Of a stretch of 30,004 nucleotides of DNA, positions 9,418-11,683 are shown piece by piece (within the stretch, counting starts at the first letter, position 1; every line of letters starts with the position of its first letter). A program made the translations under genes and the position numbers. The notes below the pieces were generated by a model. That model was not told the DNA's origin. It saw only the letters and a list, made by a program, of their open reading frames with translations, and ran no database searches. Source of the DNA: a virus (taxonomy: Duplodnaviria; Heunggongvirae; Uroviricota; Caudoviricetes); IMG/VR virus record IMGVR_UViG_2872198387_000003. One strand, 5' to 3'.

Positions 9418-9639
9418 ATGATTGCTCATCACTTCGGAACTGATGAAATACCACGTCAGTGTGTGACTCCTGGCGATTATGTTCTTCATGAAGGTCGGAC
9501 ATATATCGCCTCGGCAAACAATATTAAAAAGCGAAAACTTTATATTCGTAGCCTGACTACAAAAACATGCATTTCTGACTGCATGATTAAAGTCTTCCTC
9601 GGTCGTGATGGTTTACCTGTAAAGGCGGAGTCATGGTAA
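9418..9639 (+). CDS. Hypothetical protein, 73 aa, first gene of an uncharacterised cassette
   Basis: Strong RBS AAGGAGG 6 nt before ATG; stop overlaps the next start (TAATG). Confidence 0.5.
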
Positions 9640-9809
9640 TGACTAAGAAAATAAAATGTGCTTATCACCTTTGCAATAAAGAAATTGAAGAAAGCAAAAT
9701 CATTACAAGACCACTTCATTTCATGCGTGGAGTTATACCAACGACGGAAATGAAAAAATATTGTAGTGAAATCTGTGCCGAAAAAGACCAGATGGCACAC
9801 GAACTTTAA
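9639..9809 (+). CDS. Hypothetical small Cys-rich protein, 56 aa (not in the supplied ORF track)
   Basis: My translation [56 protein letters not shown]; coupled start TAATG; C..C...C...C pattern. Confidence 0.4.
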   Translation: MTKKIKCAYHLCNKEIEESKIITRPLHFMRGVIPTTEMKKYCSEICAEKDQMAHEL

Positions 9810-9883
9810 TTAACTGACTATCCGAAACTGAATTTATGCCAGCAATGGCAGGGATTCGCTCAACCTTAATTAAGGAGAAAAAC

Positions 9884-10159
9884 ATGATTACCAGTTATGA
9901 AGCCACTGTTGTAACTACTGATGACATTGTTCACGAGGTTAATCTGGAAGGAAAGCGTATTGGCTACGTGATTAAGACAGAAAATAAAGAAACCCCATTC
10001 ACTGTGGTTGATATCGACGGTCCATCAGGCAACGTTAAAACACTTAACGATGGTGTAAAAAAAATGTGTCTGGTGCACATAGGAAAGAATCTGCCCGCAG
10101 AAAAAAAAGCCGAATTTCTGGCAACTCTGATTGCAATGAAATTAAAAGGTGAAATCTGA
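9884..10159 (+). CDS. Hypothetical protein, 91 aa
   Basis: AAGGAG RBS 7 nt before ATG at 9884 (MITSYEATVV...). Confidence 0.5.
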   Translation: MITSYEATVVTTDDIVHEVNLEGKRIGYVIKTENKETPFTVVDIDGPSGNVKTLNDGVKKMCLVHIGKNLPAEKKAEFLATLIAMKLKGEI

Positions 10160-10169
10160 AAAAAAGAAA

Positions 10170-10188
10170 GCCTGCACACTGTGCAGGC
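10170..10188 (-). terminator. Hairpin GCCTGCACA-C-TGTGCAGGC with the T-tract on the minus strand only (intrinsic-terminator geometry for leftward transcription)
   Basis: Perfect inverted repeat; plus strand has an A-run before it and no T-run after. Confidence 0.3.
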
Positions 10189-10258
10189 CTGAATGAAGAA
10201 CCTGGGACATTTATTCATCACTCGCAGTAATTTTAATCTGAGTTGAGGTTAAAAAACA

Positions 10259-11683
10259 ATGAACACCGATAAACAAGTTTACCCACTGTATTACGAAGCA
10301 AAAAATGACAAAGTAAGAAAACGTCTCGGTATTAAAGGCGGTTTTTACTGGGCTGAAGCGAAAAAATTATCCATTGCCATCTCCCGTGGTGCTGTTGCGA
10401 TTGACGATGCAGGCTACGATGAAGATGACTTTAAAAAACCTGTTCGCGTCAATTTGCCCGTTGTTGATGACCTCCCGCCAGAAGGCGTATTTGATACGGA
10501 ATTCTGCAACCGTTACGAAAAAGGCGGGGAAGATGGCATCACAATGGTATTTATCGCATCTTCTCCCTCTGTTCAGGACAAACCGGCCAGCACTGACAAT
10601 ACCAACGTCAACGGCGAAGACATGACAGAAATTGAGGAGAACATGCTCCTGCCAGTTTCCGGTCAGGAACTGCCCATTCGCTGGCTTGCGCAACACGGCA
10701 GCGAAAAACCAGTAACGCACGTTTCACGCGACGAACTCCAGGCATTACACATTGCTCGGGATGAAGAACTACCAGCTGTTACTGCCCTGGCTGTTTCCCA
10801 CAAAACCAGCCTGCTCGATCCGCTGGAAATTCGCGATCTCCACAAACTGGTGCGTGATACTGACAGAGTTTTCCCTAATCCAGGCAATTCAAGCCTGGGG
10901 CTGATGACTGCTTTTTTCGAAGCATACATGGACGCAGACTACACCGATCGCGGTCTGCTGACAAAAGAGTGGATGAAAGGAAATCGTGTTTCACGCATCA
11001 CGCGCACGGCTTCCGGCGCTAATGCTGGCGGCGGGAACCTCACCGATCGCGGCGAAGGTTTCGTTCACGATCTGACGTCACTGGCGCGCGACGTAGCCAC
11101 TGGCGTACTGGCTCGTTCAATGGACGTGGACATTTATAACCTTCATCCGGCACACGCTAAACGTGTCGAGGAAATTATCGCTGAAAATAAACCGCCCTTT
11201 TCTGTTTTCCGCGACAAATTCATCACCATGCCTGGCGGGATGGATTATTCCCGCGCCATCGTGGTTGCGTCAGTGAAAGAAGCACCGATTGGTATCGAGG
11301 TCATCCCCGCTCACGTCACTGAATATCTGAACAAGGTACTGACTGAAACCGATCATGCCAACCCTGATCCGGAAATCGTGGATATTGCCTGCGGTCGCTC
11401 CTCTGCCCCGATGCCGCAACGTGTAACAGAAGAAGGAAAACAGGATGATGAAGAAAAAACGCAGCCATCTGGCGCAATGGCAGATGAACAGGCAACGGCT
11501 GAAACAATGGAACCGGATGCAACTGAACATCATCAGAACACGCAGCCGCTGGATGCTCAGTCACAGGTAAATTCTGTTGATGAGAAATATCAGGAACTAC
11601 GGGCAGAACTCCATGAAGCCCGGAAAAACATTCCGCCCAAAAATCCTGTCGATGCAGACAAATTACTGGCTGCCTTGAGGTAG
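10259..11683 (+). CDS. Hypothetical protein, 474 aa, acidic C-terminal region; no Walker motif or other family signature recognised
   Basis: Long uninterrupted ORF, same strand as the three small genes upstream. Confidence 0.6.

Follow-up and report, generated by a model that had tools for sequence, protein, structure and literature searches.

A kilR-ydaE-racC-recE' block in Shigella flexneri as a decayed remnant of a Rac-type prophage operon

Layout and identity of the four genes

The locus described here lies at positions 9418-11683 of a 30,004-nt stretch of DNA (IMG/VR record IMGVR_UViG_2872198387_000003), which is referred to as the window; coordinates are window positions. It contains kilR, ydaE, racC, and a truncated recE (recE'), placed between the insertion sequences (IS) IS2 and IS600. 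A first-pass annotation, made from the sequence alone, had reported four same-strand open reading frames (ORFs) of 73, 56, 91, and 474 amino acids (aa), and these were confirmed at their positions. In the program-made ORF list, the second ORF started from 9633 and the third from 9836; the starts used here are 9639 and 9884. The genes were assigned as follows.

9418-9639, plus strand: kilR, 73 aa, Rac-type Kil protein, inhibitor of FtsZ/cell division, intact
9639-9809, plus strand: ydaE, 56 aa, four-cysteine zinc-finger protein, intact
9884-10159, plus strand: racC, 91 aa, intact
10259-11675, plus strand: recE', the 5' 54% of the exonuclease VIII gene, 472 native codons; the ORF stop lies at 11683

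The ribosome-binding sites proposed earlier were found as Shine-Dalgarno-like sequences before each start, i.e., AAGGAGG (kilR), GGCGGAG (ydaE), AAGGAG (racC), and GAGG (recE). The coupling of the first two genes was also real: kilR and ydaE overlap by 1 nt in the motif TAATG (TAA 9637-9639, ATG 9639-9641). The end of racC and the start of recE are 99 bp apart, and this gap holds a hairpin.

10168-10190, no strand assigned: GC-rich hairpin in the racC/recE intergenic region, terminator-like match, 10 pairs, 6 of them G-C

The T-run of the hairpin is on the minus strand only, so that it looks like a terminator of antisense transcription, or a partial barrier. It lies inside the stretch that can be aligned to the racC-recE region of Escherichia coli K-12.

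None of the four proteins had been thought to resemble any family. In profile searches, all four matched curated families, and KilR, YdaE, and RacC scored above the NCBIfam curated cut-offs. KilR matched NF008465 (FtsZ inhibitor protein) over its full length (1-73/73) with 160.9 bits (cut-off 92), and PF27398:KilR is precomputed for this gene in S. flexneri genomes. It was identical at 69/73 residues to K-12 KilR and at 72/73 to the KilR of E. coli AVS0790. Its C-terminal region is intact, i.e., the protein has 73 aa as in K-12 and residues 56-73 are identical. This region is described in PMC12482147 as critical for toxicity in a length-dependent way.

YdaE matched NF041288, a family that is also PF27493, along its whole length with 87.5 bits (cut-off 35), and showed similarity to the Rtr1/RPAP2 zinc finger (31.7 bits, Pfam). 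Its cysteines C7, C12, C42, and C46 are all conserved in K-12 YdaE, which is annotated as 'zinc-binding protein', and the protein was identical to that of AVS0790 (56/56). RacC matched NF007306 over residues 1-91/91 with 204.2 bits (cut-off 171), with 88/91 residues identical to K-12 RacC and 90/91 to AVS0790. In PHROG assignment, the first ORF was 'Kil protein for bacterial septation inhibition' (phrog_294) and the fourth belonged to an exonuclease family.

The 474-aa ORF aligned to positions 1-474 of 877 in NF007259, the exodeoxyribonuclease VIII equivalog. The score, 922.4 bits, is below the full-length cut-off of 1269 because half of RecE is missing. PF06630 (Exonuc_VIII) was found at residues 52-189 with 127.3 bits (cut-off 25), and 457/474 residues were identical to the 877-aa RecE of AVS0790. 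The acidic tail noted in the large protein is the inter-domain linker of RecE, and no nuclease signature had been seen because the nuclease domain is cut off.

Over 9418-11675, the DNA shared 97% identity with an intact prophage in E. coli AVS0790 (NZ_CP124436), and 80% or more of the query was present in over 1,500 complete E. coli genomes. The block aligned as a single piece with AVS0790, K-12, and 99E2750, in the collinear, single-strand order kil-ydaE-racC-recE. The order in AVS0790 is kil, a YdaE family protein, a hypothetical protein at the racC position, recE (877 aa), recT, ralR, excisionase, and integrase. In 99E2750 (NZ_CP157170), it is dicB', Rha, kil, ydaE, racC, and recE-recT-ralR-rcbA-xisR-intR-ttcA, with an intact 282-aa Rha gene directly 5' of kil.

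From these matches, the block is read, with a probability of roughly 96%, as what survives of the middle of an early-left operon that belonged to a Rac-type lambdoid prophage in the S. flexneri chromosome. The claim of a cassette of unknown function has to be given up, since the 474-aa protein is homologous to RecE and stands beside kilR, ydaE, and racC, its usual neighbours in E. coli Rac-type prophages, which number in the thousands. The block is already known and is annotated as such in RefSeq genomes of E. coli and Shigella. For the 474-aa ORF, the annotation should read recE pseudogene, not protein of unknown function.

The IS2 and IS600 junctions

The block had been described as boxed in by two IS elements. 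IS2 does lie upstream and IS600 downstream; the gap between the IS2 end and the kilR ATG is 65 bp, not 66. The features on the upstream side are listed below.

8022-9352, plus strand: IS2, 1331 bp, target duplication GCTGC at 8017-8021 and 9353-9357
7483-8021, plus strand: pseudogene of a Rha-family antirepressor, ORFs 7483-7815 and 7778-8071, last codons resuming at 9358-9371
7335-7422, plus strand: C4 antisense RNA, Rfam gathering-score match, 76.7 bits
7234-7310, plus strand: isrK, Rfam gathering-score match, 59.6 bits
7199-7227, plus strand: promoter-like site, TTGAAA-17-TATAGT, 10/12 matches

The two Rha ORFs match consecutive parts of phrog_995, i.e., profile positions 102-201 and 201-303 of 307, which points to a frameshift. 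The 3' end of the frameshifted gene is further split by IS2. When IS2 was removed in silico, an ORF ending in ...VEQLLSIK and a stop codon was restored, 47 bp before the kilR start. With IS2 taken out, the sequence gave one unbroken alignment to E. coli prophages that have dicB', the Rha regulator, kil, ydaE, and racC side by side. Because IS2 is thus a simple insertion, with a GCTGC duplication, inside contiguous prophage DNA, it did not bring the block in. A second IS2 copy (26522-27852) is nearly identical, with one mismatch in the shared stretch.

The stretch 7234-7422 is a leader module like those of P1 immI and Gifsy isrK, placed before the antirepressor gene in the same operon. A second isrK and C4 module, with an a1b1 target element, was seen on the minus strand at 18867-19068, in another prophage remnant. 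Rac-type prophages of E. coli have, immediately 5' of kil, a stretch to which 6948-7160 is about 80% identical. This part of the window overlaps the region of the K-12 small RNA (sRNA) kilS and a dicB-like fragment, has a terminator-like hairpin at 6955-6982, and is separated from kilR here by the inserted isrK/C4/Rha module.

On the downstream side, two features form the junction.

11676-11687, minus strand: inverted IS600 right-end remnant, 12 nt, TGAGGTAGCCTG, the reverse complement of 12940-12951
11688-12951, minus strand (transposase): IS600 copy 2, 1264 bp, complete, no target duplication

The homology to recE stops after 11675 (...CTGGCTGCCT), where the intact gene goes on CTCGCGGAGAA..., and the window reads TGAGGTAGCCTG and then TGAGGTGTACTGG.... 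The 12-nt remnant gives the last two codons (Leu-Arg, one base shared with recE) and the TAG stop at 11681-11683. As 11676-11687 is IS600 right-end sequence, these two codons and the stop are derived from the IS. The cassette had been said to end 4 bp before IS600. Its stop does lie at 11683, but the prophage DNA ends at 11675 and the rest comes from IS600.

The native codons left, 472, are 54% of the 877-aa RecE, and the ORF end corresponds to about residue 461 of the 866 in K-12 RecE. The solved RecE nuclease domain, PDB 3H4R, covers K-12 residues 605-866 (domain 564/605-866) and lies beyond the truncation. RecE' therefore retains the N-terminal region and the acidic linker, and the whole nuclease domain is gone. 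The 474-aa protein had no match in a PDB sequence search, as expected, since the solved part of RecE is the C-terminal nuclease domain alone. The adjacent partner recT is absent, and IS600 follows directly after recE'.

By tblastn of the 30-kb window, no C-terminal part of K-12 RecE and no RecT (E <= 1e-3), RalR, SieB, RacR, YdaF, YdaG, or IntR was detected, so the lost parts of the operon have not been moved to another place in the window. Lacking RacR, SieB, RecT, RalR, and IntR there, the prophage is a remnant and not complete. From work on the K-12 orthologue, RecE' is expected to be unable to act as an exonuclease or to support RecET recombination, and to be a pseudogene product at best.

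Four IS600 copies were found in the window, with 0-3 mismatches. Copies 1 and 3 have 3-bp target duplications (AAC and CTG). Copy 2 is flanked by ctg on the left and gta on the right, and the lack of a duplication noted earlier was confirmed. This copy marks where the operon was broken, with the loss of the remainder of recE, of recT, and of the genes downstream. The inverted 12-nt tip beside a full IS600 leads us to infer at least two successive IS600 events at this point. An earlier, oppositely oriented IS600 may have sat at the recE breakpoint and have been struck or replaced later by a second copy; IS-into-IS insertion followed by recombination or deletion would give such a structure.

An inversion between copies 2 and 4 (28305-29568, inverted, no duplication) was tried as the cause of the missing duplication and rejected. 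Such an inversion would put cag on the left side of copy 4 and tcc on the right side of copy 2; the triplets seen there are aag and gta. This misfit places the recombination partner of copy 2 outside the window. A composite transposon, or another IS-delivered cargo, was also rejected, with its unlike ends, IS2 with its own GCTGC duplication and IS600 without any.

A 474-aa protein of exactly this sequence is recorded for 692 contigs, with names like 'exonuclease VIII [Shigella flexneri]'. The arrangement IS2-kilR-ydaE-racC-recE'-IS600 was present in six complete S. flexneri chromosomes (L003-L008), and the left IS600 junction was identical, including 11676-11687. To the right of IS600, these six carry a 5'-truncated lambda-type gam and then IS911, whereas the window has a different 2.1-kb segment (12952-15035) before the same IS911(-like) end. 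Since the right flank varies by strain, IS elements have rearranged the DNA at the right junction, in keeping with the lack of a target duplication. As lambda-type gam lies on the far side in the six chromosomes, IS600 joined two different early-left operons.

The segment 12952-15035 is absent from the six genomes. It has AT-rich degenerate repeats (12964-13100), a C-terminal fragment of a tyrosine recombinase (13405-13692, minus strand), an IS3-family orfA (13666-13932), and the sRNA isrN (13931-14073, minus strand).

Expression, function, and rival readings

Promoters were scanned with a sigma-70-like consensus and a score threshold. No such site was found between IS2 and kilR (9353-9417), and the nearest on the plus strand is the one at 7199-7227, upstream of isrK. 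IS2 is known to form hybrid promoters; an outward promoter borne on IS2 was considered and was unsupported at the scan threshold. With no promoter-like site in this interval, expression of the block is probably low and dependent on read-through. Transcription would enter from IS2 or from the promoter of the upstream isrK region.

The functions of the intact genes can be considered from K-12. In PMC12482147, KilR is described as highly toxic, blocking Z-ring formation and, at higher levels, MreB. In E. coli, kilR is normally silenced by Rho/NusG termination; under oxidative stress, OxyS represses nusG, kilR is released, and division is transiently arrested (PMC5793797). By analogy, if the genes here are transcribed, KilR would halt division by preventing FtsZ ring formation and, in larger amounts, by blocking MreB. 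A genome-wide screen found RacC to be the strongest blocker of RcaT, the toxin of retron-Sen2, and this effect was reported for K-12 RacC with retron-Sen2 and retron-Eco9 (bioRxiv 10.1101/2020.06.22.160242). In the same study, RecE was the trigger, which degrades multicopy single-stranded DNA (msDNA), and racC-recE was termed a linked blocker-trigger pair. RacC of the window could likewise neutralise an RcaT-type retron toxin. Of this pair, the locus has lost the nuclease of the RecE trigger and kept the blocker RacC alone.

The first-pass annotation had regarded the block as a cargo islet delivered or retained by IS events, with possible defence, anti-defence, or toxin-antitoxin functions. 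A novel, uncharacterised system of this kind would agree with surroundings rich in prophages and IS elements, and with the block being boxed by IS2 and an IS600 without target duplication. It would also agree with the toxin-like activity of KilR and the anti-defence activity of RacC in the literature. Those activities are already published, and no PADLOC-DB 2.0 family was matched by any of the four proteins at E <= 0.1. All four ORFs belong to named families, and intact prophages free of these IS elements agree with them in gene order and DNA. The 'large protein' is encoded by a truncated gene that takes its stop codon from IS600. IS2 went in as a simple insertion and has its own duplication; IS2 and IS600 belong to different families and are unable to move the block jointly. 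We therefore give a novel islet next to no credence. What stands of the islet proposal is a remnant left by IS-mediated truncation and rearrangement; delivery fell. The block was cut down, not brought in, by IS elements.

It might also be supposed that kilR-ydaE-racC, perhaps with the RecE N-terminal fragment, is a domesticated module kept under selection while the prophage decays. It could serve to arrest division under stress, like OxyS-NusG-KilR in E. coli, or to counter a retron toxin. In its favour, all three small genes are whole with both neighbours broken (Rha frameshifted and split by IS2, recE truncated), and the arrangement is common to many isolates. K-12 KilR contributes to recovery from oxidative stress (PMC12482147, PMC5793797). 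Small genes are small targets, however, and S. flexneri lineages are young, so that shared intactness is expected without selection. In S. flexneri CP026765 (L003, positions 9095-9864 of L003), an IS1 in the 3' end of racC replaces the last nine codons; racC is thus not universally maintained in S. flexneri and decay is still under way. The KilR sequence differs in L004, no promoter-like site lies between IS2 and kilR, and the native repressor/promoter region is not adjacent. A domesticated module is accordingly very unlikely. It is likewise very unlikely that kilR-ydaE-racC still serves the host, arresting division under stress and/or giving protection from a retron-type toxin, with expression by read-through from IS2 or the isrK-region promoter and with the free-standing 474-aa RecE N-terminal fragment separately active.

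The decayed early-left operon remains the preferred reading. A known kilR-ydaE-racC-recE block with recE halved by IS600 is ordinary prophage decay and no new system. No observation speaks against this identification, and those that follow bear on activity only. KilR differs from the K-12 protein by four substitutions (N45S, F51C, T53S, R55C), YdaE is identical to K-12 YdaE at only 41/56 residues, and the RecE' ORF has stayed open over 474 codons, with one and the same sequence in many isolates. The open RecE' frame is explained by the recent clonal origin of S. flexneri, but the fragment may conceivably have a residual function.

The result has little significance beyond correct annotation, and it is a clear case of how IS elements drive prophage decay in Shigella. 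The nuclease domain and the annealase have disappeared from a recombination operon in which KilR, a division inhibitor toxic to the host, and RacC, a published anti-retron protein, are still intact. S. flexneri offers a natural RecE allele with the N-terminal part only and a racC without its recE partner. These may be of experimental use, for the role of the RecE N-terminal region or for the RacC/RecE blocker-trigger pair.

Neighbouring features and comparison with known prophages

Further features were recognised elsewhere in the window.

2631-2813: Shigella sRNA CssrB, just 5' of the following ORF and on the opposite strand to it
2942-4657: 571-aa ORF with LRR_TTSS and NEL domains, an IpaH-type E3 ligase effector
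16475-16782, minus strand: four tRNA genes adjoining IS600 copy 3
22015-22189, minus strand: sok antitoxin RNA (hok/sok-type type I toxin-antitoxin)
24091-28304: Rac-type replication genes DUF977, DUF1627, ydaV, and ydaU

The four tRNA genes probably represent the tRNA block from the late region of a lambdoid prophage. The prophage DNA around sok also has DUF551, DUF977, DUF1627, and ydaV-like genes. The replication genes at 24091-28304 lie downstream of the kilR block, whereas they are upstream of it in intact prophages. The ydaU-like gene among them is split by the second IS2 copy (target duplication GCATC), and its start is cut off by the inverted IS600 copy 4. The displacement indicates an IS-mediated rearrangement or a second Rac-like remnant.

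In intact relatives, the operon runs (immunity region)-dicB'-Rha antirepressor-kil-ydaE-racC-recE-recT-ralR-rcbA-xis-int. In AVS0790 and 99E2750, the prophage is free of IS2 and IS600 and is unbroken across recE (877-881 aa), recT, ralR, xis, and int. That of 99E2750 is like the window minus IS2, with dicB'-Rha directly upstream of kil.

K-12 Rac (b1352, b4526, b1351, b1350, b1349) has the same order, orientation, and 1-nt kilR/ydaE overlap. RecE residues from about 110 to 472 of the window are more than 90% identical to it, whereas the first approximately 110 RecE residues and ydaE are of a different allele. The window lacks recT, ralR, rcbA, xisR, and intR, and its recE is cut after codon 472. 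On the 5' side of the block, it has the Rha antirepressor module, where K-12 Rac has sieB/ydaF/ydaG/racR.

The functional layout is the same as that of the lambda pL operon, kil-gam-bet-exo, in which genes for a division inhibitor, small accessory proteins, and an exonuclease/annealase recombination pair are all transcribed leftward from the immunity region. KilR and lambda Kil are compared in PMC12482147 and PMC5793797. KilR has no sequence similarity to lambda Kil, and the Rac-type operon has RecE/RecT in place of Exo/Bet.

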